From assembly GCF_041886205.1 (NCBI RefSeq), contig NZ_CP169029.1: 64,000 bases of DNA. One strand, 5' to 3'. Position numbers and translations under genes: made by a program. Shown here piece by piece: positions 2,433 to 51,399 of this stretch. The notes beneath the pieces are model-generated. The model was not told where the DNA came from. It did not search any database and saw nothing but the letters and a program-made list of their open reading frames with translations. The DNA is from Escherichia coli. GTDB lineage: Bacteria > Pseudomonadota > Gammaproteobacteria > Enterobacterales > Enterobacteriaceae. The stretch's first letter is position 1, and the number at the start of each line of letters is the position of its first letter.

Positions 2433-3559
<1,127 letters not shown>

Positions 3560-3653: not shown

Positions 3654-4562
3654 CTAATTCTGCTGTAAAAAGTGCAGAAACTGACTTAAAGCATAAGAAG
3701 GCGTTTCGTTATTGCGCCAGAACACACCGACGCTGCCTTTCTGTTCTATCTTTGGCAGGTTGAGGATCACCAGTTGTCCCTGGCTGGCATAACGTTGCGC
3801 CAGGCGTAATGACAAAATAGAGATCATATCGCTGCTTTGTAACAGGTTGGTACTGACGTTCATCGACGCCGACTCAATCGTGTTTTCTGGCAGCATCACG
3901 CCGTGGTCTACCAGCGCATTATCAATGCTGATGCGGATGGGGGTACCTGTCGGCCAGACTATCCACCGCCAGTTAGCAAGATCATTCCAGCTGAGGGTGG
4001 CGTATTTCGCCAGTGGATGCTCAGGACGGGCGACAAAACACACCGGCTCGGTGTAGAGCACGCGATAATTCAGCGGCAGCTGCAACGCGCGACCGCCAAT
4101 TCGCCCAACCACCACATCGACAGAACCTGCCAACAGATCTTGCAGCAATGGGGTCATCACCTTCTCTTCGATATTCAGGTGTAGAGTTGGCATCTCCTTG
4201 AGCAAATGCAAAATCGCCTGGGATACGCAGTCAGTGGCGACGGGAGAACAGCCAATTTTCAGACTGCCGACCAGACCACCTTGTTTAAAACGGGCCAGTT
4301 CATGTTGCGAGCGCTCCATGTCATTGATTAACCGTTGGGCATGTTGCAATAACAATTTGCCGCCTTCAGTAGGACGAAGTCCTTTGCTGTGCCGCTCAAA
4401 AAGTGTGAGTCCGATCTCATCTTCCAGATGTGACAACCATTTCGAAAGCGCGGGTTGGGTGATATTCATCATCCGTGCGACATGGGTCAGATTACCCTGT
4501 TCACCCAGCGCCACCAGCATTTGCAGGTGATGAAGCTTTAGTTTCTGCGCCCAGTTTGCCAT
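3654..4562 (-). CDS. LysR-family transcriptional regulator of the gentisate cluster (MhbR-like), 302 aa
   Basis: N-terminal HTH (LKLHHLQMLVALGEQGNLTHVARMMNITQPALSKWLSHLE) typical of LTTRs; divergent from catabolic operon. Confidence 0.85.
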   Translation of the reverse strand: MANWAQKLKLHHLQMLVALGEQGNLTHVARMMNITQPALSKWLSHLEDEIGLTLFERHSKGLRPTEGGKLLLQHAQRLINDMERSQHELARFKQGGLVGSLKIGCSPVATDCVSQAILHLLKEMPTLHLNIEEKVMTPLLQDLLAGSVDVVVGRIGGRALQLPLNYRVLYTEPVCFVARPEHPLAKYATLSWNDLANWRWIVWPTGTPIRISIDNALVDHGVMLPENTIESASMNVSTNLLQSSDMISILSLRLAQRYASQGQLVILNLPKIEQKGSVGVFWRNNETPSYALSQFLHFLQQN

Positions 4563-4567
4563 TTGCC

Positions 4568-4583
4568 ATAACCTTCAGGTTAT
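4568..4583. promoter_or_regulatory. perfect 16-bp palindrome ATAACCTTCAGGTTAT, candidate LTTR operator in divergent promoter region
   Basis: Dyad-symmetric sequence read directly in the 126-bp regulator/transporter intergenic region; role inferred. Confidence 0.3.
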
Positions 4584-4688
4584 CTCTCTGCTCGAAATGC
4601 CATTGTACATTTCATCTCTTTAATCACAATATCGCAACATACACAAAACAAAAGAAACATCTACCTTACCTGCACTGAGGCATTTACT

Positions 4689-6047
4689 ATGACTCAACGA
4701 CGTGATCTACAAGCACTGATCGATGCCGCTCCGGTCGGCAAGATGCAGTGGCGCGTTATCATCTGCTGTTTTCTGGTGGTAATGCTCGATGGTTTTGACA
4801 CCGCGGCTATCGGCTTTATCGCCCCTGATATTCGCACTCACTGGCAACTCACCGCAGGCGATCTCGCCCCGCTTTTTGGCGCGGGTCTGCTGGGGTTAAC
4901 CGCAGGCGCACTGCTTTGTGGCCCGTTGTCCGATCGCTTTGGTCGCAAACGGGTGATTGAGCTGTGTGTCTTTTTGTTTGGCGCGTTAAGCCTTGCCTCG
5001 GCTTTCTCACCGGATCTGCAAACGCTGGTATTCCTGCGTTTCCTAACCGGCCTTGGGCTGGGTGGCGCGATGCCAAACACCATCACCATAACCTCGGAAT
5101 ATCTGCCTGCCCGCCGCCGCGGCGCGCTGGTGACGCTGATGTTTTGCGGCTTTACGCTGGGTTCGGCGTTTGGCGGGATTGTTAGCGCGCAGCTGGTGCC
5201 GGTGATTGGCTGGCACGGCATTCTGGTGTTGGGGGGCGTGTTACCGCTGATGCTGTTTGTCGCACTGCTGGTAGTTCTGCCGGAATCGCCACGCTGGCAG
5301 GTGCGCCGCCAGCTACCGCAGGCGGTGATTGCGAAAACCGTCAGCGCCATCACCCGCGAGCGTTATGTCGATACCCACTTTTATCTCATTGAATCAGCCT
5401 CCGTTACAAAAGGCAGCATTCGTCAACTGTTTATGGGACGTCAGTTACCCATCACGTTGATGCTGTGGGTAGTGTTCTTTATGAGCCTGCTGATTATTTA
5501 CCTGCTCTCAAGCTGGATGCCGACGCTACTGAACCATCGCGGCATCGACCTGCAACACGCGTCCTGGGTCACCGCCGCGTTCCAGATTGGTGGTACGTTA
5601 GGCGCGCTGGCGCTGGGTGTGCTGATGGATAAGTTCAATCCTTTCCGCGTACTGGCACTGAGCTATGCCATAGGCGCTGTATGCATCGTGATGATTGGCT
5701 TAAGCCAGGACGGATTATGGCTGATGGCGCTGGCGATTTTCGGCACCGGCATTGGTATTAGCGGATCGCAGGTGGGGCTGAATGCGCTGACCGCCACACT
5801 TTATCCAACACAAAGTCGCGCCACGGGCGTGAGTTGGTCAAACGCCGTGGGTCGCTGCGGTGCGATTGTTGGCTCGCTTTCTGGCGGCGTGATGATGGCG
5901 ATGAATTTCTCTTTCGACACCCTGTTTTTCATTATCGCTGTGCCCGCGGCGATCAGTGCGGTGATGTTAGCCTTGCTGATTACCGTGGTTCGCCAGTCGA
6001 CCTCTGTCCCTGACTCACTGCCTCGCGCAGGCGTTGTGAACGAATAA
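4689..6047 (+). CDS. MFS aromatic-acid:H+ symporter (3-hydroxybenzoate/gentisate transporter, MhbT-like), 452 aa
   Basis: 452-aa 12-TM ORF with MFS signature [11 protein letters not shown]; first gene of catabolic operon. Confidence 0.85.
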
Positions 6048-6058
6048 GGAGCATCCTA

Positions 6059-7087
6059 ATGACTGATAACAATCAAAATAGCCGCGAACAATTTTATCAG
6101 CACATTTCCGGGCAAAACCTGACCCCGCTGTGGGAGTCACTACACCATCTGGTGCCGAAAACGCCCAACGCTAACTGTGTGCCAGCGTACTGGAATTATC
6201 AGGAGATCCGCCCGCTGCTGCTGGAGAGCGGCAGCCTGATTGGCGCGAAAGAGGCGGTGCGCCGCGTGCTGGTGCTGGAAAACCCGGCGCTGCGCGGGCA
6301 GTCTTCCATCACCGCGACTTTATATGCCGGTTTGCAACTGATCATGCCGGGCGAAGTGGCACCGAGTCATCGCCATAACCAGTCGGCGCTGCGTTTTATT
6401 GTTGAAGGCAAAGGGGCATTTACCGCCGTTGACGGCGAACGCACGCCAATGAATGAGGGCGATTTTATCCTCACTCCGCAGTGGCGCTGGCACGATCACG
6501 GTAACCCTGGCGACGAACCAGTTATCTGGCTCGATGGGCTGGATCTGCCATTAGTGAATACTCTGGGCTGCGGTTTTGCCGAAGATTACCCGGAAGAGCA
6601 ACAACCGGTAACGCGTAAAGAGGGCGATTATCTGCCGCGTTACGCTGCCAATATGTTGCCGCTGCGCCATCAGACCGGGAACTCCTCACCCATCTTTAAC
6701 TACCGTTATGACCGCAGCCGCGAAGTGCTGCACGATTTAACCCGCCTGGGCGATGCCGATGAGTGGGATGGCTACAAAATGCGCTACGTCAACCCGGTCA
6801 CCGGTGGCTATCCGATGCCGTCGATGGGCGCTTTCCTGCAACTGCTGCCGAAAGGGTTCGCCTCCCGCGTGGCGCGTACCACTGACAGCACCATCTATCA
6901 CGTGGTGGAAGGCGGCGGGCAGGTCACCATCGGCAATGAAACCTTCAGCTTTAGTGCAAAAGATATCTTCGTGGTGCCGACCTGGCACGGCGTGTCGTTC
7001 CAGACCACGCAAGATACCGTGTTATTCAGTTTTTCGGACAGACCGGTACAAGAAGCCCTGGGACTGTTCCGCGAAGCGCGTTATTAA
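6059..7087 (+). CDS. gentisate 1,2-dioxygenase (bicupin), 342 aa
   Basis: 342-aa ORF with cupin His motif ([16 protein letters not shown] ... WRWHDHGN); size typical of gentisate dioxygenases. Confidence 0.85.
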
Positions 7088-7102
7088 TTTGGGAGAGAAA
7101 AA

Positions 7103-7804
7103 ATGACTCAATACGTATTCGAACCACAAGCGCCCGTTACCGTACCGGTTGTTGGCAGTGATGAACAATTCCCCGTGCGCCGCGTGTACTGCGTCGGACG
7201 TAACTATGCCGCCCACGCCCGCGAAATGGGCTTTGATCCGGATCGTGAACCGCCATTCTTCTTCTGCAAACCGGCGGATGCCGTTGTTCCGGTTGCCGCT
7301 GGCGAAACGCTGGCGCTGCCGTATCCGGCGCAGACCGATAACTACCATTACGAAATTGAACTGGTGGTGGCGATTGGTAAAAAGGGCAGTGATATCCCGC
7401 TGGAAAACGCCCATGAATATGTCTGGGGTTATGCCACGGGTCTTGATATGACTCGTCGTGACCGTCAAATGGAAATGCGCCAGATGGGCCGCCCGTGGGA
7501 AATCGGCAAAGCGTTTGATCTCTCGGCCCCCATCGCGCCGCTGCACAAAGCCAGCGAAACCGGCGGTATTGATAACGCGCCAATCTGGTTACAGGTTAAC
7601 GGCGAAGATCATCAGCGCAGCGATATTCGCCATCTCATCTGGTCAGTGAATGAAACCATCAGCTACCTGTCCGGCTTTTTTGAACTGCAACCGGGCGATC
7701 TGATCTTCACCGGTACGCCGGAAGGGGTTGGCCCGGTAGTGAAAGGTGATGTGATCACGGGCAACGTCGAGGGCTTAACGCCTATCGCGGTGAAAATTGT
7801 CTGA
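7103..7804 (+). CDS. fumarylpyruvate hydrolase (FAH family), 233 aa
   Basis: 233-aa FAH-fold ORF directly downstream of the dioxygenase. Confidence 0.8.
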
Positions 7805-7809
7805 GGTGC

Positions 7810-8457
7810 ATGATGAAGCTGTACAGTTTTTTTAATAGTTCAGCATCGTACCGGGTACGCATTGCGCTGGCGCTGAAAGGCATTGATTACCATACCGAAG
7901 GGGTGAATATCCGCATTGGTCAGCAAAATGAACTGGCCTACCGGCGGATGAATCCGGTCGGGCTGGTGCCGACGCTGCTGACTGACGAGGGCGAATCACT
8001 TGGACAATCGCTGGCGATTATTGACTGGCTGGATCGTCACTACCCCCAAGTTCCGCTGATGCCGCAGGAAGAGCCGGCCCGCAACAAGGTGCTGGAAATT
8101 GTCTATGCCATCGCCTGTGATATTCATCCACTGAATAACCTGCGCGTGCTGCGCTACCTGACCGAAGAGCTGAACGTCAGTGAAGAAGATAAAAAACGCT
8201 GGTATGCGCACTGGATCCAGCAAGGGTTAAGCGCGGTGGAACAGCTGTTGCGCCAGAGCCAGTCGGGGCAATTTTGCGTGGGCGAGACGCCGACGCTGGC
8301 AGATTGCTGCCTTGTCCCGCAGTGGGCGAACGCGCTACGCATGAACTGCGATCTGAGTGGGTATCCGCGCTGCAAAGCGGTGTACGACGCCTGCACGCAG
8401 CTGCCAGCGTTCATTGCCGCAGCGCCAGAAAATCAACAAGATAAAATTTCAGCCTGA
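7810..8457 (+). CDS. maleylpyruvate isomerase (GST zeta-like), 215 aa
   Basis: GST N-terminal thioredoxin-like fold (MKLYSFFNSSASYRVRIALALKGIDY); operon context. Confidence 0.8.
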   Translation: MMKLYSFFNSSASYRVRIALALKGIDYHTEGVNIRIGQQNELAYRRMNPVGLVPTLLTDEGESLGQSLAIIDWLDRHYPQVPLMPQEEPARNKVLEIVYAIACDIHPLNNLRVLRYLTEELNVSEEDKKRWYAHWIQQGLSAVEQLLRQSQSGQFCVGETPTLADCCLVPQWANALRMNCDLSGYPRCKAVYDACTQLPAFIAAAPENQQDKISA

Positions 8458-8468
8458 CCAGGAGAACC

Positions 8469-9665
8469 ATGATGACTAAAGTGACACGCGCAGTAATTGT
8501 GGGAGGCGGGATCGGCGGTGCGGCAACTGCGCTGTCACTGGCCCGCCAGGGGATCAAAGTGGTGCTGCTGGAAAAGGCGCATGAGATTGGTGAGATTGGC
8601 GCGGGCATCCAGTTGGGGCCAAATGCGTTTTCGGCGTTGGATAGCCTCGGCGTCGGCGAAATCGCCCGCCAGCGCGCGGTATTCACCGATCACATCACCA
8701 TGATGGATGCGGTAAACGCCGAAGAAGTGGTGCGCATTGAAACCGGTCAGGCCTTTCGCGACCATTTCGGCGGCCCTTACGCGGTGATCCACCGGGTTGA
8801 TATTCACGCCTCGGTGTGGGAAGCGGTACTGACGCATCCGGACGTGGAATATCACACCTCCACCAACGTCGTGGATATTCGTGAGACGGAAGACGATGTC
8901 ACCGTGTTTGACGATCGCGGCAATAGCTGGAGCGGCGATATTCTGATTGGCTGTGATGGCGTGAAGTCAGTGGTGCGCCAGAGCTTATTAGGCGATGCGC
9001 CGCGCGTCACCGGACATGTGGTCTACCGCGCAGTTATCGATTGTGCGGATATGCCGGAAGATTTGCGCATTAACGCACCAGTACTGTGGGCGGGGCCGCA
9101 CTGTCACCTGGTGCATTACCCTTTGCGCGGCGGCAAGCAGTATAACCTGGTGGTGACATTCCACAGCCGCCAGCAGGAAGAGTGGGGCGTGAAGGATGGC
9201 AGTAAAGAGGAAGTGCTCTCTTACTTTGAAGGGATTCACCCCCGTCCTCGCCAGATGCTGGATAAACCGACCTCCTGGCGACGCTGGTCAACCGCCGACC
9301 GTGAACCGGTAGCGAAGTGGGGAACGAAGCGCATTACGCTGGTTGGCGATGCGGCCCATCCGGTGGCGCAGTATATGGCGCAGGGTGCCTGTATGGCGTT
9401 GGAAGACGCGGTAACGCTCGGCAAGGCGCTGGCGCAGTGTGAGGGGGATGCGGCGCAAGCCTTTGCACTGTATGAGTCGGTACGTATTCCGCGCACCGCG
9501 CGCATCGTCTGGTCGACCCGTGAAATGGGGCGGGTTTATCACGCCGCAGGAGTAGAGCGCCAGGTACGAAACCTGCTGTGGAAAGGTAAATCGCAGGCAG
9601 AGTTTTACCGCGGCATGGAGTGGCTGTACGGCTGGAAAGAAGATAACTGTCTGCAACCACGCTGA
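8469..9665 (+). CDS. 3-hydroxybenzoate 6-hydroxylase (FAD-dependent monooxygenase), 398 aa
   Basis: Rossmann GxGxxG ([20 protein letters not shown]) near N-terminus; salicylate-hydroxylase-like length; last gene of cluster. Confidence 0.8.
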
Positions 9666-9685
9666 GTACTTTAATCCGCTGACCG

Positions 9686-9715
9686 GAGGCGCTAACATAG
9701 CGCCTCATTTTTTTG
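9686..9715 (+). terminator. intrinsic terminator after catabolic operon
   Basis: Hairpin gaggcgct-aacat-agcgcctc followed by atttttttg. Confidence 0.5.
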
Positions 9716-9726
9716 CGGGTGATGAT

Positions 9727-10674
9727 ATGCGTGTGTTACTGGCGCCGATGGAGGGTGTGCTTGACTCTCTGGTGCGTGAATTGCTGACCGAAGTTAACGA
9801 CTACGATCTGTGCATCACCGAGTTTGTCCGCGTGGTGGATCAACTGCTGCCGGTAAAAGTCTTTCATCGCATTTGCCCTGAGCTACAAAACGCCAGCCGG
9901 ACACCATCCGGTACGCGGGTGCGCGTTCAGTTGTTAGGTCAGTTCCCACAATGGCTGGCAGAGAACGCCGCCCGTGCGGTGGAATTAGGTTCCTGGGGCG
10001 TGGATCTCAATTGCGGCTGCCCGTCGAAAACGGTTAACGGCAGCGGCGGCGGGGCGACGTTACTCAAAGATCCTGAACTCATCTACCAGGGTGCAAAAGC
10101 GATGCGTGAAGCTGTACCGGCGCATTTGCCCGTCAGCGTGAAAGTGCGTCTGGGCTGGGACAGCGGTGAGAAGAAATTTGAAATCGCCGATGCGGTTCAA
10201 CAGGCTGGTGCTACGGAGCTGGTGGTGCATGGACGGACAAAAGAGCAGGGTTACCGCGCGGAGCATATTGACTGGCAGGCGATTGGCGAGATTCGCCAGC
10301 GGCTGAATATTCCGGTGATTGCCAACGGTGAAATCTGGGACTGGCAGAGTGCGCAACAATGCATGGCGATCAGCGGCTGCGACGCAGTGATGATTGGTCG
10401 CGGGGCGCTCAATATTCCCAACCTGAGCCGGGTGGTAAAATATAACGAACCGCGAATGCCGTGGCCGGAGGTGGTTGCTTTGCTGCAAAAATATACCCGT
10501 CTGGAAAAGCAGGGCGATACCGGGTTATATCACGTAGCGCGGATTAAACAGTGGTTGAGTTATTTGCGTAAAGAATACGATGAAGCAACAGAATTATTTC
10601 AGCATGTTCGGGTGTTGAATAATCCCCCTGATATTGCAAGGGCTATTCAGGCAATTGATATCGAGAAACTCTAA
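9727..10674 (+). CDS. dusC: tRNA-dihydrouridine(16) synthase DusC, 315 aa
   Basis: 315-aa ORF beginning [22 protein letters not shown]-barrel Dus family; synteny. Confidence 0.92.
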
Positions 10675-10715
10675 TAAACCATAGTGATGTTTTTTGACAA
10701 TGTGTTAGCTCTTTA

Positions 10716-10976
10716 TCAATAGGCCGCACGGTTGTTTGGTGGCGTCAAAATTGCCGAGGCGTTCCCTGAAGGCCGGGGCAGCCCACATGGATGTGGGCTG
10801 AGGGCGCGTTTTACAGGGATGTTACCTCGCGCCCGACCCGGTAGCCGTAAGGGATAAGCCGAGGGCACCGCGCAGCGGCGATTTTGTTCGCCAGAGCCCG
10901 GGGGTGCAGGGGGCGGCGGCGATTGGCCGCCCCCTGCGCGCTCCTTGCGCCAGTGATTATATGAAGCAATGCACAT
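10716..10976. repeat. GC-rich intergenic repetitive element with two perfect palindromes
   Basis: cagcccacat/atgtgggctg (10779-10800) and cagggggcggc/gccgccccctg (10907-10936) read directly; not canonical REP. Confidence 0.4.
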
Positions 10977-11129: not shown

Positions 11130-11353
11130 TTGGCGTTCCTTTATTTGTGAGTGCTGAATAAGTATAGGAAAAAACGAAGCCCTTTGCCGTTATCCATAAA
11201 CGATTAAGATAAATCGGAAGATATCATTCACTTAGTGTATATTTTTCTGGATATGTCGTTTTATTGCTACTGATGTATTGCCACGCGAAACTAAAAAATA
11301 TATCGCAACACACGGTAATCTCCGCGCACCTTTTCTTACCTGATTATTCCCCC

Positions 11354-12790
11354 ATGAATCGTGATTCCTTTTATCCCGCCATCGCCTGTTTTCCGCTGTT
11401 ACTGATGCTGGCCGGGTGTGCGCCTATGCATGAAACCCGCCAGGCGTTAAGCCAGCAAACGCCCGCTGCACAAGTTGACACCGCATTACCCACGGCGCTG
11501 AAAAATGGTTGGCCAGACAGCCAATGGTGGCTGGAGTATCACGATAATCAGCTCACTTCATTAATTAACAATGCACTACAGAACGCACCGGATATGCAGG
11601 TGGCTGAACAGCGCATTCAGCTAGCTGAAGCCCAGGCGAAGGCAGTTGCCACTCAGGATGGTCCGCAGATCGACTTTTCGGCGGATATGGAGCGGCAAAA
11701 AATGTCGGCAGAAGGCTTAATGGGGCCGTTTGCTCTGAACGATCCGGCCGCAGGTACGACCGGCCCGTGGTACACCAACGGTACTTTTGGCTTAACGGCG
11801 GGCTGGCATCTCGATATCTGGGGAAAGAATCGGGCGGAGGTTACTGCCCGCCTGGGTACGGTTAAAGCACGGGCGGCGGAACGCGAGCAAACCCGCCAAT
11901 TGCTGGCTGGCAGCGTAGCCCGCCTGTACTGGGAGTGGCAAACCCAGGCGGCGTTAAACACGGTCTTGCAGCAAATAGAAAAAGAGCAGAACACCATTAT
12001 CGCGACCGATCGCCAGCTATATCAGAACGGGATTACTTCTTCAGTTGAAGGTGTGGAAACCGATATTAATGCCAGCAAAACCCGGCAGCAGCTCAACGAT
12101 GTCGCGGGGAAAATGAAAATTATTGAGGCACGGTTAAGCGCACTTACAAATCACCAGACAAAGTCATTGAAGCTTAAACCGGTCGCGTTGCCGAAAGTGG
12201 CAAGCCAGCTTCCTGATGAACTGGGGTACTCCTTACTGGCCCGGCGGGCAGATTTGCAGGCGGCGCACTGGTACGTTGAGTCATCGCTAAGCACCATTGA
12301 TGCGGCAAAAGCGGCATTTTATCCTGACATCAACCTGATGGCCTTCCTGCAACAGGATGCGTTGCACTTAAGCGATCTGTTCCGTCATTCCGCGCAGCAA
12401 ATGGGCGTTACGGCAGGCCTGACGCTACCCATTTTCGATAGTGGTCGTCTTAACGCCAATCTCGATATCGCAAAAGCCGAAAGCAACTTGTCTATCGCCA
12501 GCTACAACAAAGCGGTGGTTGAAGCGGTGAATGACGTGGCGCGGGCAGCCAGTCAGGTTCAGACACTTGCGGAGAAAAACCAGCATCAGGCGCAAATTGA
12601 GCGCGATGCCTTGCGTGTGGTAGGTCTTGCGCAGGCGCGCTTTAACGCGGGCATCATTGCTGGTTCCCGCGTCAGCGAAGCCAGAATCCCCGCGCTGCGT
12701 GAGCGGGCCAATGGCCTGTTATTGCAAGGGCAGTGGCTGGATGCCTCCATTCAACTCACTGGTGTGTTGGGCGGGGGTTACAAACGCTGA
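11354..12790 (+). CDS. mdtQ: outer-membrane efflux lipoprotein MdtQ (TolC/OprM family), apparently intact, 478 aa
   Basis: Track ORF 11264..12790 trimmed to MNRDSFYPAIACFPLLLMLAGCA lipobox start; continuous reading frame. Confidence 0.8.
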   Translation: MNRDSFYPAIACFPLLLMLAGCAPMHETRQALSQQTPAAQVDTALPTALKNGWPDSQWWLEYHDNQLTSLINNALQNAPDMQVAEQRIQLAEAQAKAVATQDGPQIDFSADMERQKMSAEGLMGPFALNDPAAGTTGPWYTNGTFGLTAGWHLDIWGKNRAEVTARLGTVKARAAEREQTRQLLAGSVARLYWEWQTQAALNTVLQQIEKEQNTIIATDRQLYQNGITSSVEGVETDINASKTRQQLNDVAGKMKIIEARLSALTNHQTKSLKLKPVALPKVASQLPDELGYSLLARRADLQAAHWYVESSLSTIDAAKAAFYPDINLMAFLQQDALHLSDLFRHSAQQMGVTAGLTLPIFDSGRLNANLDIAKAESNLSIASYNKAVVEAVNDVARAASQVQTLAEKNQHQAQIERDALRVVGLAQARFNAGIIAGSRVSEARIPALRERANGLLLQGQWLDASIQLTGVLGGGYKR

Positions 12791-16215: not shown

Positions 16216-17929
16216 ACTCCACTTCCTGCCAGTTTTTCCGTTTACTGGTTTTACCGATCCCCGGATTCATGCTGTTGGTCGGATCGTTCTCGCGATAGAA
16301 CTTCTGCAACGTCTCCGGTGCTTTATACAAATGACCGACGTTATGCTCGGCAGGGTACTGCGCGCCGCGCTGCTGTAGCAGTTCTAGCATCTGTTCTTTT
16401 AACGCATGCACATCCACGCCTTTTTTAACGATGTAATCCTGATGGAAGACATAGCACATAAAATGGCCGTAATAGAGCTTGTGCACCAGCTGGCTGTCGA
16501 TCTCCGGCGGTAAATGCTCATACCACTCGGTGTCGTTACGCCGCAGAGCGATATCCAGCGCCAGAATGTCTTCGACTTCATCGGAATGCACCGCCTGATA
16601 ACGAATTGCTGCGCCCGCAGCGGCGAAACGGTGTAAAAACGCTTTGCTGCCTTCCTCCGGCGTACAGACAAAGAAATCGCCTTCGGCCTGTTTGAAATAA
16701 TCCACCAACCACGATTTGGCTTCGCCCACGCCATCGCCCGCCATTTTTAACAGCAGATGATGCTCGTATTTATCGCGCCAGTTTTTCATGCGCGGCGGTA
16801 AATGGCTGGGGAACAGGTGACCGAATTTTTGCATCGCACGGTCAGTAAAATGCGGACGGAAGAATTTCACTTTCTCCAGCATCGCATCGGTGCGTCCCTT
16901 GAGATTAAAGAAGAACGGCATCTTGTCGGTGCCTAACTTATCAATCATCAGGAAGGTGTCTTTGCCGTATTTTTCCGCAATATCGTAGATATCCCGGTGC
17001 ATATATTCCCCGGCAACCGGCAGATTTTCGAAGTTAGCCAGAATATGACGGCGGATTTCGGTCAGCACTTCCGGCTGGTTGGTGCCGATATAAAACACCT
17101 GCTGATTTTTTTCCGCTTCGAAGGTATCTAGACGTACTGCAAAGACCGCCAGCTTCCCGGCGCAACCAGAAGATTCAAATAACCGATCAGGATCGGCGTT
17201 ATAACGTGCGGGCGTGTCGGCTTCAATATCACGAACGCGGTGGACATAGTCATAATCGTGGGCGTGACGACCATCGTGACGCACATCGTCATCTTTGATG
17301 CGATCATCATCCAGCTTGCTAAGGATCTGCTCCGGCGTTTCGCCCAGATCAATCCCCAGATGGTTCACTAGCGTCAGTTTGCCGTCTTCATTTATACGCG
17401 CGAATAACGACATTTCGGTATACGCCGGGCCACGTTGCACCAGCGAGCCGCCGGAGTTGTTACAAATACCGCCGATGACCGATGCGCCTATACACGATGA
17501 TCCAATCACTGAGTGCGGTTCGCGTCCCAGCGGTTTGAGGGCTTTTTCCAGCGAATAGAGCGTGGTGCCCGGATAGGCCAGCACCTGTTCGCCCTTGCCA
17601 AGAACGTGCAGCTTGTCGAGACGCAGGGTGCTGATGATAACGACATCGCGATCATAATCGTTACCGTTTGGCGTCGATCCTTCGGTCAGGCCTGTATTGG
17701 CGGCCTGCATCAGAATAATTTTGTCGGCGGTGACGCAGGCTTTCAGCACCCGCCACAATTCCAGTAGTGAGCCAGGGAAAACGACAGCCAGCGCGTCGCC
17801 CTGACCAGAACGGAAGCCCTTGCGATAGCGGGCCGTTTTTGCGGGATCGGTGAGCAGGTGTGAAGAACCCACCAGACGAGCAAGTTCATTCAAAAAGGCT
17901 TTATTATCAGTTGTTGTCATGGAAGACAT
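16214..17929 (-). CDS. dld: FAD-dependent D-lactate dehydrogenase, 571 aa
   Basis: Track ORF trimmed to MSSMTTTDNKAFLNELARLVG; length and synteny. Confidence 0.92.
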   Translation of the reverse strand: MSSMTTTDNKAFLNELARLVGSSHLLTDPAKTARYRKGFRSGQGDALAVVFPGSLLELWRVLKACVTADKIILMQAANTGLTEGSTPNGNDYDRDVVIISTLRLDKLHVLGKGEQVLAYPGTTLYSLEKALKPLGREPHSVIGSSCIGASVIGGICNNSGGSLVQRGPAYTEMSLFARINEDGKLTLVNHLGIDLGETPEQILSKLDDDRIKDDDVRHDGRHAHDYDYVHRVRDIEADTPARYNADPDRLFESSGCAGKLAVFAVRLDTFEAEKNQQVFYIGTNQPEVLTEIRRHILANFENLPVAGEYMHRDIYDIAEKYGKDTFLMIDKLGTDKMPFFFNLKGRTDAMLEKVKFFRPHFTDRAMQKFGHLFPSHLPPRMKNWRDKYEHHLLLKMAGDGVGEAKSWLVDYFKQAEGDFFVCTPEEGSKAFLHRFAAAGAAIRYQAVHSDEVEDILALDIALRRNDTEWYEHLPPEIDSQLVHKLYYGHFMCYVFHQDYIVKKGVDVHALKEQMLELLQQRGAQYPAEHNVGHLYKAPETLQKFYRENDPTNSMNPGIGKTSKRKNWQEVE

Positions 17930-36143: not shown

Positions 36144-36202
36144 CGCTTTCCCGTTGGTAAGTCGTGTTGAAAACGGGCAGTCGCATCACTGCCCGTTGTG
36201 TT

Positions 36203-47470: not shown

Positions 47471-47501
47471 TAAAGAAAAGGCGCTGTCGATGCAGCGCCT
47501 T
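47471..47501 (-). terminator. metG intrinsic terminator
   Basis: Reverse strand reads aaggcgctg-catcga-cagcgcctt followed by ttctttat, just after metG stop. Confidence 0.6.
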
Positions 47502-51359: not shown

Positions 51360-51399
51360 AAGCCGAAATCATTTATATAAATGATTTCGGCTTTTTTTA
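51360..51399 (+). terminator. intrinsic terminator after yehE
   Basis: Long hairpin gccgaaatcattta/taaatgatttcggc followed by ttttttt. Confidence 0.55.

Follow-up and report, generated by a model that had tools for sequence, protein, structure and literature searches.

How is dusC transcribed when a structure resembling an intrinsic terminator stands directly before its start codon? In the 64,000-nt stretch of Escherichia coli DNA that we analyzed (hereafter, the window), dusC (9727 to 10674, plus strand) encodes tRNA-dihydrouridine(16) synthase (NCBIfam NF007838 equivalog, 693 bits, residues 1 to 311) and has the same start, 9727, as K-12 b2140, in agreement with an earlier sequence-only reading of this DNA. 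Upstream lies mhbM (8469 to 9665, plus strand; NCBIfam NF006021 equivalog, 760 bits), the last gene of mhbTDHIM, which encodes 3-hydroxybenzoate 6-monooxygenase and has the same annotation in the 100%-identical strain AMSCJX02. Its stop codon (TGA) occupies 9663 to 9665, and the hairpin begins 20 nt beyond. The sequence-only reading saw rightly that a promoter would not fit into the few bases separating the T-tract from the ATG, and supposed that dusC is expressed by read-through, from a promoter inside the hydroxylase gene, or through an attenuator. None of these is needed: the promoter hexamers delimited in K-12 by Reg-Seq overlap the hairpin. The explanation that we favor on balance is that positions 9669 to 9726 (58 bp) are a conserved dusC control region, within which the hairpin and T-tract probably form a dual-use promoter/terminator element.

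The hairpin itself (9686 to 9706, plus strand) is seen in the sequence, in a terminator scan, by folding, and in cross-species pairing. Its perfect stem pairs GAGGCGCTA (9686 to 9694) with TAGCGCCTC (9698 to 9706) across an ACA loop (9695 to 9697) and is followed by A9707, a run of seven Ts at 9708 to 9714, and G9715, so that 12 nt separate the end of the T-run from the dusC ATG (9727 to 9729). The hairpin and T-tract of the sequence-only reading are therefore real, with a stem of 9 rather than 8 bp and a T-run ending at 9714 rather than 9715. The terminator scan reported 9 pairs, 6 of them G-C, and a 3-nt loop; the folding energy of the 21-nt core is -14.5 kcal/mol, and the 76-nt context gives z = -3.1. 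We counted 5 equally strict sites (4 distinct; perfect stem of at least 9 bp, loop of 3 to 8, at least 6 T among the 9 nt that follow) in the window versus 0.055 in 200 dinucleotide shuffles; such sites are about 100 times rarer in the shuffles, and the hairpin is thus not due to chance. A REP/BIME-like repeated element was rejected, since the palindrome is unique, with no second copy within the 64-kb window. A permissive Rfam search of 9400 to 10000 returned two chance-level matches only, with no leader and no riboswitch. An outer helix (9674 to 9679 with 9715 to 9720), which might sequester the Shine-Dalgarno sequence in read-through RNA, was paired in 66% of cases, and slid controls gave as many double changes.

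The hairpin had been placed at the edge of a genomic island, and neither the position nor the island withstands comparison with other genomes. Megablast and a side-by-side reading of the K-12 intergenic region set the right boundary of the cluster at 9668/9669; matches to cluster-less genomes start at query position 110, corresponding to 9669, and the hairpin is thus 17 nt inside DNA common to E. coli lacking the cluster. Homology on the dusC side, from 9669, is present in 5,424 of 5,426 E. coli genomes, K-12 included, which makes the hairpin core DNA, while the mhbM-dusC junction is found in only 154. K-12, where the upstream neighbor of dusC is the divergent yohJ, is identical over 9669 to 9729 except at 9685 and 9686 (GG here, AT in K-12), so the hairpin is not island specific. 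The exact 61-nt K-12 form was counted in 1,985 genomes and the window form in 64, counts that are limited by the E-value cutoff on 61-nt queries.

The cluster extends leftward to a boundary at about 3594/3595. Besides mhbM it covers 3654 to 8457: mhbR (about 3654 to 4562, minus strand), of the LysR type according to profile matches and annotation, mhbT (4689 to 6047), and the genes for gentisate 1,2-dioxygenase (6059 to 7087), fumarylpyruvate hydrolase (7103 to 7804), and maleylpyruvate isomerase (7810 to 8457). The gene names are those of Klebsiella M5a1 (PMC3572157), whose mhbRTDHIM has identical gene order and content; the window proteins are 84 to 92% identical to orthologs of the Klebsiella oxytoca group, which occupy the same yohJ-dusC locus, and nothing in the cluster itself is unusual beside them, apart from its retention in only about 3% of complete E. 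coli genomes (about 97% lack it). Even there it is partly decaying, mhbM being frameshifted in E24377A. The order yohJ-mhbRTDHIM-dusC is common to Citrobacter, Salmonella diarizonae, the Klebsiella oxytoca group, Raoultella terrigena, and Pseudocitrobacter, and the identities to Citrobacter are alike for MhbM (91 to 94%), DusC (89 to 92%), and YohJ (89 to 95%). A horizontally acquired island, with a locus-specific insertion and a divergence unlike that of its flanks, was rejected, because the order is shared with relatives and the identities match the flanks. Deletion remnants of the cluster are found in S. arizonae and Citrobacter Cu233. These comparisons indicate that mhbRTDHIM (3-hydroxybenzoate/gentisate pathway) is an old resident of the yohJ-dusC locus that was lost repeatedly. 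Cluster remnants in K-12 were also considered and rejected: the 108-bp segment that replaces the cluster there is Escherichia specific and has no homology to mhb. Nor is the hairpin a terminator that travels with mhbM, since in Kluyvera another gene lies between mhbM and dusC and the hairpin motif remains beside dusC, and a plasmid-borne mhbM pseudogene has no hairpin 3' of it.

If the hairpin belongs with dusC, a promoter may be sought within it. Reg-Seq showed that a 160-bp K-12 fragment drives a reporter in dependence on two hexamers that overlap the hairpin (PMC7567609). Its supplementary file 3 gives, in nearly all conditions, expression-lowering blocks at -48 to -42 and -30/-26 to -18 relative to 2230395, which we converted to window positions as 9727 - (x - 2230385), K-12 dusC being on the minus strand. 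The blocks fall at 9669 to 9675 and 9687/9691 to 9699, that is, on TTTAAT and TAACAT. All elements of the promoter lie on the plus strand. The -35 element, TTTAAT (9670 to 9675; 3/6 to TTGACA), is supported by its Reg-Seq block and by conservation and abuts the cluster boundary. A 17-bp spacer (9676 to 9692), delimited by sequence and Reg-Seq, supplies, with its 3' part (9686 to 9692), the greater portion of the hairpin's left arm. The -10 element, TAACAT (9693 to 9698), for which conservation and a Reg-Seq block agree, lies across the stem top and loop, and the GC-rich discriminator AGCGCCTC (9699 to 9706), recognized by its near-invariance, makes up most of the right arm. Among 48 Enterobacteriaceae sequences, the T-A-n-n-A-T of the -10 element (T9693, A9694, A9697, and T9698) is invariant, with AC, CC, CT, TG, or AG at 9695 and 9696; so are C9701, G9702, C9703, T9705, and C9706 of the discriminator. 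In the -35 region, kept as cTTTcAAcc, T9670 is invariant and CTTT is well conserved.

The arrangement has the features of a sigma-70 promoter, with a -10 element carrying A and T at positions 2 and 6, respectively, and a -35 element at 17-bp spacing, although the match to consensus is poor (7/12; -35 3/6, -10 4/6). A consensus promoter scan of 8800 to 10800 and of the K-12 intergenic region gave no matches, because its threshold of 9/12 exceeds 7/12. An RpoD-holoenzyme SELEX peak lies within the dusC/yohJ spacer (PMC3946193). The dusC promoter that Shimada 2014 picked there by sequence, TCAACA-18-CATCAT by yohJ, was rejected, as it would lie 6 kb off and antisense to mhbR in mhb-positive strains, and as the Reg-Seq sensitive blocks are elsewhere. 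Reg-Seq also describes a "repressor-like" region at -43 to -16 (manually called at -35 to -20), where mutations raise expression (PMC7567609), corresponding to 9674 to 9701 (manual call, 9682 to 9697). Its automatic labels are inconsistent, the block at -30 to -19 being named "-35" in two conditions (PMC7567609). A conventional sigma-70 promoter of dusC overlapping the hairpin is thus experimentally supported in K-12, and we infer it for the window strain, in which two spacer bases differ. The locus is an ordinary, compact promoter-in-terminator, and dusC is independent of the mhb operon. Gain or loss of the cluster had been expected to alter dusC regulation; the core promoter from the -35 element on is kept with or without it, and upstream of -48 Reg-Seq detected no block that was consistently sensitive to mutation in K-12 (PMC7567609), so that such changes should affect the basal promoter little.

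Transcription would start at about 9704 to 9707 (plus strand), most likely at A9707, which follows C9706 and an 8-nt discriminator; this placement rests on the position of the -10 element and on the displacement of the Reg-Seq RNA polymerase blocks, 12 nt upstream relative to the presumed start. That presumed start, K-12 position 2230395 (minus strand), is the sole mapped start quoted in Reg-Seq supplementary file 1, where it is attributed to Raghavan 2011 (PMC7567609), and is equivalent to 9717. It is 19 nt downstream of TAACAT, compared with the 6 to 9 nt expected of a promoter, and the quoted coordinate is probably imprecise, by 10 to 12 nt. A start mapped downstream of 9715 was what the sequence-only reading had said would count against it; nominally 9717 is such a start. 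The Cappable-seq, ROSE, and reiterative-initiation supplementary tables that we examined have no dusC rows. Position 9707 is T in 36 of the 48 sequences, and T9709 to T9711 are invariant. Beyond the T-run, a CGGG(T/A) block (9716 to 9722, plus strand), 5 to 10 nt 5' of the ATG, is probably a weak Shine-Dalgarno sequence, as suggested by its conservation (G9718 never varies; C9716 and G9717 are conserved to 90% or more).

The second role of the hairpin concerns transcription arriving from mhbM. Intrinsic terminators are defined by a G-C-rich hairpin and an immediately following U-rich tract of about 7 to 9 nt (PMC3993855). The window has such a hairpin, an adjacent U-tract, and a co-oriented unit upstream, with the mhbM stop 20 nt before the stem; in K-12 and the majority of E. 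coli the co-oriented unit is missing, the neighbor being the divergent yohJ. K-12 Term-seq (PMC7815308) has no 3' end at 22303xx to 22304xx, which is uninformative because K-12, lacking a co-oriented gene immediately upstream, should have little or no transcription entering the site. In 17 of 17 other species in which mhbM adjoins dusC, all nine pairs of the hairpin are kept (one with a G-U pair), while at loci with a divergent neighbor the median stem energy is -7.3 kcal/mol and the stem is often decayed. Among the best 80 of 411 dusC loci, stem integrity was associated with the type of neighbor (Fisher test; P = 0.01, not corrected for phylogeny, by which the association is confounded). In Leclercia and Enterobacter asburiae the stem is decayed even though the gene upstream is co-oriented. 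The stem showed no covariation signal: 87% of cells were paired, with 0 compensatory changes, no better than in shuffles, and the right arm is invariant while the left arm drifts. The hairpin probably stops transcription arriving from the mhb operon.

The dual-use element would then work as follows. Sigma-70 transcription initiated within the hairpin would yield a dusC mRNA without the left arm, hence without the hairpin, its 5' end being the U-run, some 20 nt upstream of the ATG. Polymerase coming from the co-oriented mhbTDHIM would copy both arms and the U-run and terminate at about 9712 to 9715, thereby closing the catabolic operon 50 nt past mhbM and shielding dusC from 3-hydroxybenzoate-induced read-through. 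The T7 tract (9708 to 9714, plus strand), which is conserved, would be at once the terminator U-tract of the incoming RNA and the first transcribed bases of dusC. Occlusion of the dusC promoter by incoming polymerase during mhb induction is possible. As to origin, Rahnella, Serratia, Hafnia, Pectobacterium, Dickeya, and Brenneria have TAnnnT, a GC-rich segment, and a T-run, on which for the most part no hairpin closes; a related tGCGCgTC motif occurs without a hairpin in Rahnella, Serratia, and Hafnia, and hairpin-less families have T-runs of 4 to 8 at the corresponding position. The -10 element, discriminator, and T-run may thus predate the hairpin, the spacer having become complementary to the discriminator in Enterobacteriaceae and so placed a terminator atop a promoter. 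The complementarity would have stayed perfect with mhbM upstream and drifted after loss of the cluster.

Three other explanations have to be weighed against this one. The site could be a promoter only, its palindrome being an operator for a dimeric repressor or a historical accident arising from the constrained discriminator arm. This is rather unlikely, even though the left arm and spacer count in Reg-Seq as a "repressor" site without an assigned factor, the stem has no compensatory changes, about 5,270 E. coli genomes keep the hairpin without an abutting co-oriented gene, and Term-seq lists no 3' end in K-12. By the terminator rules cited above (PMC3993855), a 9-bp G-C-rich stem with U7 terminates incoming polymerase whatever its "purpose"; the stem is intact wherever mhbM abuts and decays at many loci without incoming transcription; and the repressor-like signal may reflect the GC-rich spacer, or mutations that create near-consensus sequence and lift a weak promoter.

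It is distinctly less probable that the main start is 9717 itself, driven by a weak -10-like CATTTT (9706 to 9711), with the upstream hexamers as a secondary promoter or activator-dependent element. The coordinate from EcoCyc/Raghavan 2011, as quoted by Reg-Seq, speaks for such a start, as do the A and T at positions 2 and 6 of CATTTT and the pyrimidine-purine dinucleotide C9716-G9717. However, Reg-Seq has no sensitive block at the corresponding -12 to -7, save for a broad call at -24 to -6 in one condition, and most genera have T in place of the A (CTTTTT) and so lack the crucial -11 A; trimming or nontemplated U addition might also shift an RNA-seq 5' end that directly follows a U-run. Very improbable, finally, is the model of the sequence-only reading, a pure terminator or attenuator without a local promoter, through which the cluster rewires dusC by read-through or a promoter inside mhbM. 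The lack of promoter space between 9715 and 9727 and the empty scan over 8800 to 10800 fit it, but the scan was stricter than the promoter it would have had to find. The hairpin precedes dusC in nearly all E. coli genomes, most without mhbM, so that expression of dusC cannot require the cluster; for K-12 the model is contradicted by the dependence of the reporter fragment on the two hexamers.

Compared with known systems, the dual-use element resembles canonical E. coli Rho-independent terminators in its G-C-rich 9-bp stem, short loop, U7, and position after the last gene of an operon. Unlike them, it holds the -10 element of the next gene in its stem-loop, and transcription of that gene would open with the U-tract; it is inherited with the downstream gene and persists in most E. 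coli without a co-oriented gene immediately upstream. Housekeeping sigma-70 promoters of the rrnB P1 and tRNA type have a GC-rich discriminator layout, which in rrnB P1 is TATAAT-GCGCCACC-A. That layout is similar to the dusC succession of -35 element, 17 bp, -10 element, and 8-nt discriminator containing GCGCC, and dusC serves tRNA maturation; unlike in the rrnB P1 type, both hexamers are weak and the discriminator is at the same time one arm of the hairpin. A literature search for a link of dusC to ppGpp/DksA or growth rate found nothing.

A further likeness concerns the T-run. The UTP-sensitive promoters upp-uraA, codBA, and pyrBI are regulated by reiterative transcription and start-site switching (10.1101/2024.12.23.630015); the text and the examined supplementary file of that source do not include dusC. 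In K-12, upp reads TATAAT-ccgtc-GATTTTTTTTG and codBA TAGAAT-gcggcg-GATTTTTTG, and dusC in the window reads TAACAT-agcgcctc-ATTTTTTTG; all three have a -10 element, a short GC-rich segment, A, 6 to 8 T, and then G. If dusC starts at A9707, its T7 would be +2 to +8, as in the upp/codBA layout. Unlike codBA and upp, it has C-A rather than the G-A pair needed for a G/A start switch, and unlike upp, codBA, and pyrBI it is not a gene of pyrimidine salvage or biosynthesis. Retention of the T-run in Rahnella, Serratia, Hafnia, Pectobacterium, and Dickeya without a hairpin closing on it argues for a function besides termination. By analogy, the T-run might be a regulatory initially transcribed sequence rather than primarily a U-tract, with transcripts from A9707 (AUUUUUUUG...) slipping at high UTP and tuning dusC to the UTP pool, an idea that we regard as doubtful. 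Were it true, nontemplated 5' U additions would explain the RNA-seq-derived start at 9717, just past the T-run.

For annotation, this locus means that a textbook-looking terminator before a start codon does not imply an absent promoter, which may lie inside it and be missed by consensus scanners. For evolution, it offers a simple, clear case of a terminator that apparently arose from complementarity between spacer and discriminator, together with a reused T-run, and that relaxes after loss of the upstream operon. The dusC locus is also a cheap test case for upp/codBA-like UTP sensing in a tRNA modification gene; if that reading is true, an enzyme that reduces tRNA uridine would be expressed according to the UTP pool.

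In the window, the minus-strand genes mhbR (LysR-type) and yohJ come first, followed on the plus strand by mhbT (4689-6047), the genes for gentisate 1,2-dioxygenase (6059-7087), a fumarylpyruvate-hydrolase-type protein (7103-7804) and maleylpyruvate isomerase (7810-8457), mhbM for 3-hydroxybenzoate 6-monooxygenase (8469-9665; stop TGA 9663-9665), and dusC (9727-10674). The mhb names are those of the Klebsiella M5a1 cluster (PMC3572157). The arms of the hairpin before dusC, GAGGCGCTA (9686-9694) and TAGCGCCTC (9698-9706), enclose the loop ACA and are followed by A9707 and seven T residues (9708-9714), with 12 nt from the T-run to the dusC ATG. The sequence-only reading had placed this hairpin correctly to within one base, and had given it a stem of 8 bp where 9 bp were found. 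The hairpin was picked up by a terminator scan, and its 21-nt core folds at -14.5 kcal/mol. The window has 5 equally strict sites with a hairpin and a T-run, whereas 200 dinucleotide shuffles gave an expectation of 0.055; the hairpin is real, and chance is excluded as its source. Under strict criteria, the 64-kb window has only the dusC site and three further perfect hairpins of at least 9 bp with T-rich tails, presumably ordinary terminators, at 36173-36196 (+), 51364-51389 (+) and ~47477-47500 (minus strand; position 16500 on the reverse complement). A hairpin within yohJ, ATGCCTGCCTGTATGCAGGCAT and then TTTTCATT (3447-3468, minus strand), lies ~80 nt into the coding sequence; at the corresponding K-12 position (2230706, plus strand), Term-seq detected a 3' end internal to the ORF (PMC7815308), and the hairpin is a possible site of premature termination or attenuation in yohJK. 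The gene mdtQ (11264-12790, +), described as a pseudogene in K-12 (PMC12719787), appears intact (NCBIfam MdtQ equivalog, 1023 bits, full profile), and is annotated as a 479-aa gene in AMSCJX02.

A 301-bp junction probe, along which the E. coli strain AMSCJX02 is 100% identical to the window, gave matches in 5424 of the 5426 complete E. coli genomes. Its mhbM part was matched in only 154 of them, and in the remaining genomes the match starts at probe position 110 (window 9669). The neighbor of dusC in K-12 is the divergent yohJ, 238 bp off, and 108 unrelated, Escherichia-specific bases stand in place of the window's 6.1-kb cluster. K-12 and the window share an identical sequence from 9669 to the ATG apart from 9685-9686, where K-12 has AT and the window GG, leaving K-12 a stem of 8 bp. 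Since this identity starts at 9669 and the K-12 replacement bases are unrelated, the boundary of the cluster is 9668/9669, and the hairpin begins 17 nt inside DNA common to cluster-less E. coli. The hairpin had been taken as part of the island, which does not hold, because the same element is present in K-12 and in the 5424 matching genomes. The 108-bp K-12 segment (1645-1752 of the K-12 locus; missing from the window) has no homology to the mhb cluster and holds a perfect 11-12-bp hairpin, AGAGGGATTGC-agtttgca-GCAATCCCTCT; a 273-bp variant of this dusC-yohJ spacer was found in other Escherichia. The reference ETEC strain E24377A (locus L086, 305-1497) carries the cluster and, before dusC, a 61-mer exactly of the window type, and its mhbM is annotated as frameshifted, suggesting that decay of the cluster is ongoing within E. 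coli.

The DNA on the dusC side of this boundary probably contains a promoter. The arrangement cTTTcAAcc, 17 bp, TAnnAT, AGCGCCTC and T6-8 is found at a constant distance before dusC, whether mhbM, yohJ or another gene lies upstream. In an alignment of 48 sequences, the invariant columns are T9693, A9694, A9697, T9698, most of 9701-9706, T9709-9711 and G9718, while 9695-9696 are free to vary (AC, CC, CT, TG, AG). Judged from this alignment, conservation of T-A-n-n-A-T with variation confined to positions 3 and 4 is characteristic of a sigma-70 -10 hexamer rather than a hairpin loop, and TTTAAT (9670-9675) lies exactly 17 bp 5' of TAACAT. The Reg-Seq study (Ireland et al. 2020; PMC7567609) subjected a 160-bp K-12 region spanning the dusC promoter to mutagenesis, with 2230395 (reverse strand), a coordinate from Raghavan et al. 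2011, as its zero point; the K-12 dusC ATG is at 2230385, and Reg-Seq position p corresponds to window 9717 + p. In nearly all growth conditions, mutations lowered expression in a block at -48 to -42 (window 9669-9675) and in a second one from -30 or -26 to -18 (window 9687/9691-9699) (PMC7567609, supplementary file 3). These two blocks coincide with TTTAAT and TAACAT, and further upstream of the -35 block there was no consistent mutation-sensitive block. The position of the dusC promoter is already implicit in published supplementary data. Mutations in a "repressor-like" block at -43 to -16 (manually -35 to -20), for which no factor was identified, raise expression (PMC7567609); this block corresponds to the spacer and the left arm of the hairpin. 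An RpoD-holoenzyme SELEX peak was reported in the dusC/yohJ spacer by Shimada et al. 2014 (PMC3946193), where the hexamers picked by eye adjoin yohJ and differ from the Reg-Seq-sensitive ones. It had rightly been argued that no promoter fits into the 12 bases between the T-run and the ATG. The conclusion drawn from this, that dusC depends on read-through, on attenuation or on a promoter within mhbM, is not supported, since its own promoter hexamers, supported by the K-12 Reg-Seq data, overlap the hairpin. Likewise, gain or loss of the cluster is not expected to rewire dusC, as the boundary leaves the region from -35 to the start wholly with dusC and Reg-Seq has no consistent block upstream of that region.

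The Reg-Seq blocks lie ~12 nt too far upstream for the presumed start at 2230395, so the dusC start is expected near 9704-9707, most plausibly at A9707 after C9706. The curated start (window 9717) lies 10-13 nt from the one that mutational and phylogenetic data point to (9704-9707). One explanation would be that the T-run works like those of upp, codBA and pyrBI, which cause UTP-dependent reiterative transcription and start-site switching (10.1101/2024.12.23.630015). The layouts read directly from K-12 are TATAAT-ccgtc-GATTTTTTTTG for upp and TAGAAT-gcggcg-GATTTTTTG for codBA, and that of dusC is TAACAT-agcgcctc-ATTTTTTTG. If true, such a start region would account for the RNA-seq-derived 5' end just past the U-run. 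Unlike the upp/codBA type, however, dusC has no G-A start pair, and 9707 is T, not A, in most genera; we consider this analogy unlikely.

The terminator-like nature of the structure, also proposed from sequence, stands: polymerase arriving from upstream transcribes both arms and the U-run, so that all the defining features of an intrinsic terminator, as given in PMC3993855, are present. It is the only structure of this kind after mhbM in the window. The stem is paired at 9/9 positions in 17/17 other loci with mhbM directly upstream (-12.1 to -14.5 kcal/mol; one with a G-U pair), whereas loci with a divergent neighbor are often degraded (median, -7.3 kcal/mol). Cluster-less Citrobacter species have an A-C mismatch, Kluyvera pairs 7/9 positions, and Enterobacter, Trabulsiella and relatives pair 4-6/9. 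Stem and neighbor orientation are associated (Fisher, P = 0.01; Mann-Whitney, P = 0.02, both ignoring shared ancestry), with exceptions: the stem is decayed in Leclercia and E. asburiae despite a co-oriented neighbor, and perfect in Raoultella ornithinolytica despite a divergent one. Pair counting found 87% of cells paired, an essentially invariant right arm, a drifting left arm and no compensatory changes, hence no covariation support for pairing as such. In K-12, Term-seq records no 3' end here (PMC7815308); this is uninformative, as K-12 lacks a directly adjoining co-oriented gene 5' of the site, and transcription into it should be slight or absent. A plasmid-borne mhbM pseudogene has no hairpin after it. 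From these comparisons, mhb transcripts likely terminate at the hairpin before dusC.

We searched 80 dusC loci of species-representative genomes with the window proteins. The order yohJ-mhbR-mhbTDHIM-dusC was found in seven Citrobacter species, Salmonella enterica subsp. diarizonae, four species of the Klebsiella oxytoca group, Raoultella terrigena, Pseudocitrobacter and others, with one additional gene between the cluster and dusC in Kluyvera. Identities to Citrobacter are similar for the three proteins: 91-94% for MhbM, 89-92% for DusC and 89-95% for YohJ. S. arizonae retains mhbR and a truncated mhbT, and Citrobacter sp. Cu233 apparently the final mhbM bases. Judged from gene order and identity, this distribution fits a cluster that was inherited vertically and lost repeatedly, and not one gained recently at a site peculiar to E. 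coli. The subsp. arizonae locus (L051, 4884-8000) carries mhbR and the first 162 mhbT codons, then ~1 kb of other DNA and, directly before dusC, an AT-rich stretch without the TAnnAT/GC/T-run motif; it is a decayed cluster whose dusC promoter has been replaced. Plasmid NZ_CP133870.1 (E. coli ES5, 95 kb; locus L085, across the record start) carries a frameshifted mhbM copy, 89% identical. The junction probe matched 26 plasmid places in all, and parts of the cluster are therefore also mobile.

Beyond Enterobacteriaceae (Rahnella, Serratia, Hafnia, Winslowiella, Brenneria, Dickeya, Pectobacterium), the DNA before dusC retains TAnnnT, a GC-rich segment of 7-11 nt (often tGCGCgTC) and a T-run of 4-8, putative promoters located by pattern. 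The T-run starts 18-21 nt from the ATG in most of these taxa, and farther off in Hafnia (46 nt), Pectobacterium (54-74 nt) and Samsonia (60 nt). Since these parts are kept there, mostly without a hairpin closing on the T-run, the T-run and discriminator are older than the left arm. The simplest history would be that a few spacer substitutions turned an existing promoter into a terminator fold once a co-oriented operon lay upstream. In Escherichia albertii (L008, ~60-141), promoter and hairpin are swapped upstream of an unchanged ...TTTGCGGGTGATGATATG for another terminator-like hairpin, CCTCCGGC-tat-GCCGGAGG plus ATATTTATTT, with the breakpoint within the T-run; the contig ends 141 nt upstream. 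In Kluyvera and relatives (L034, L036, L039, L041, L053, L060), a divergent gene of ~461 aa, ~110 nt upstream of dusC, separates dusC from the mhb cluster or from yohJ; these loci have GTGGAAAGC in place of the -35-region motif and a decayed left arm, and retain TACCAT-AGCGCCTC-T8.

In the papers searchable, we found no description of the terminator-like fold, its overlap with the promoter, the cluster boundary at the -35 edge or the comparative pattern. The dusC element is a compact case of two well-known element types, and an induced cluster could push polymerases across the dusC promoter (occlusion) before they stop in its U-run.
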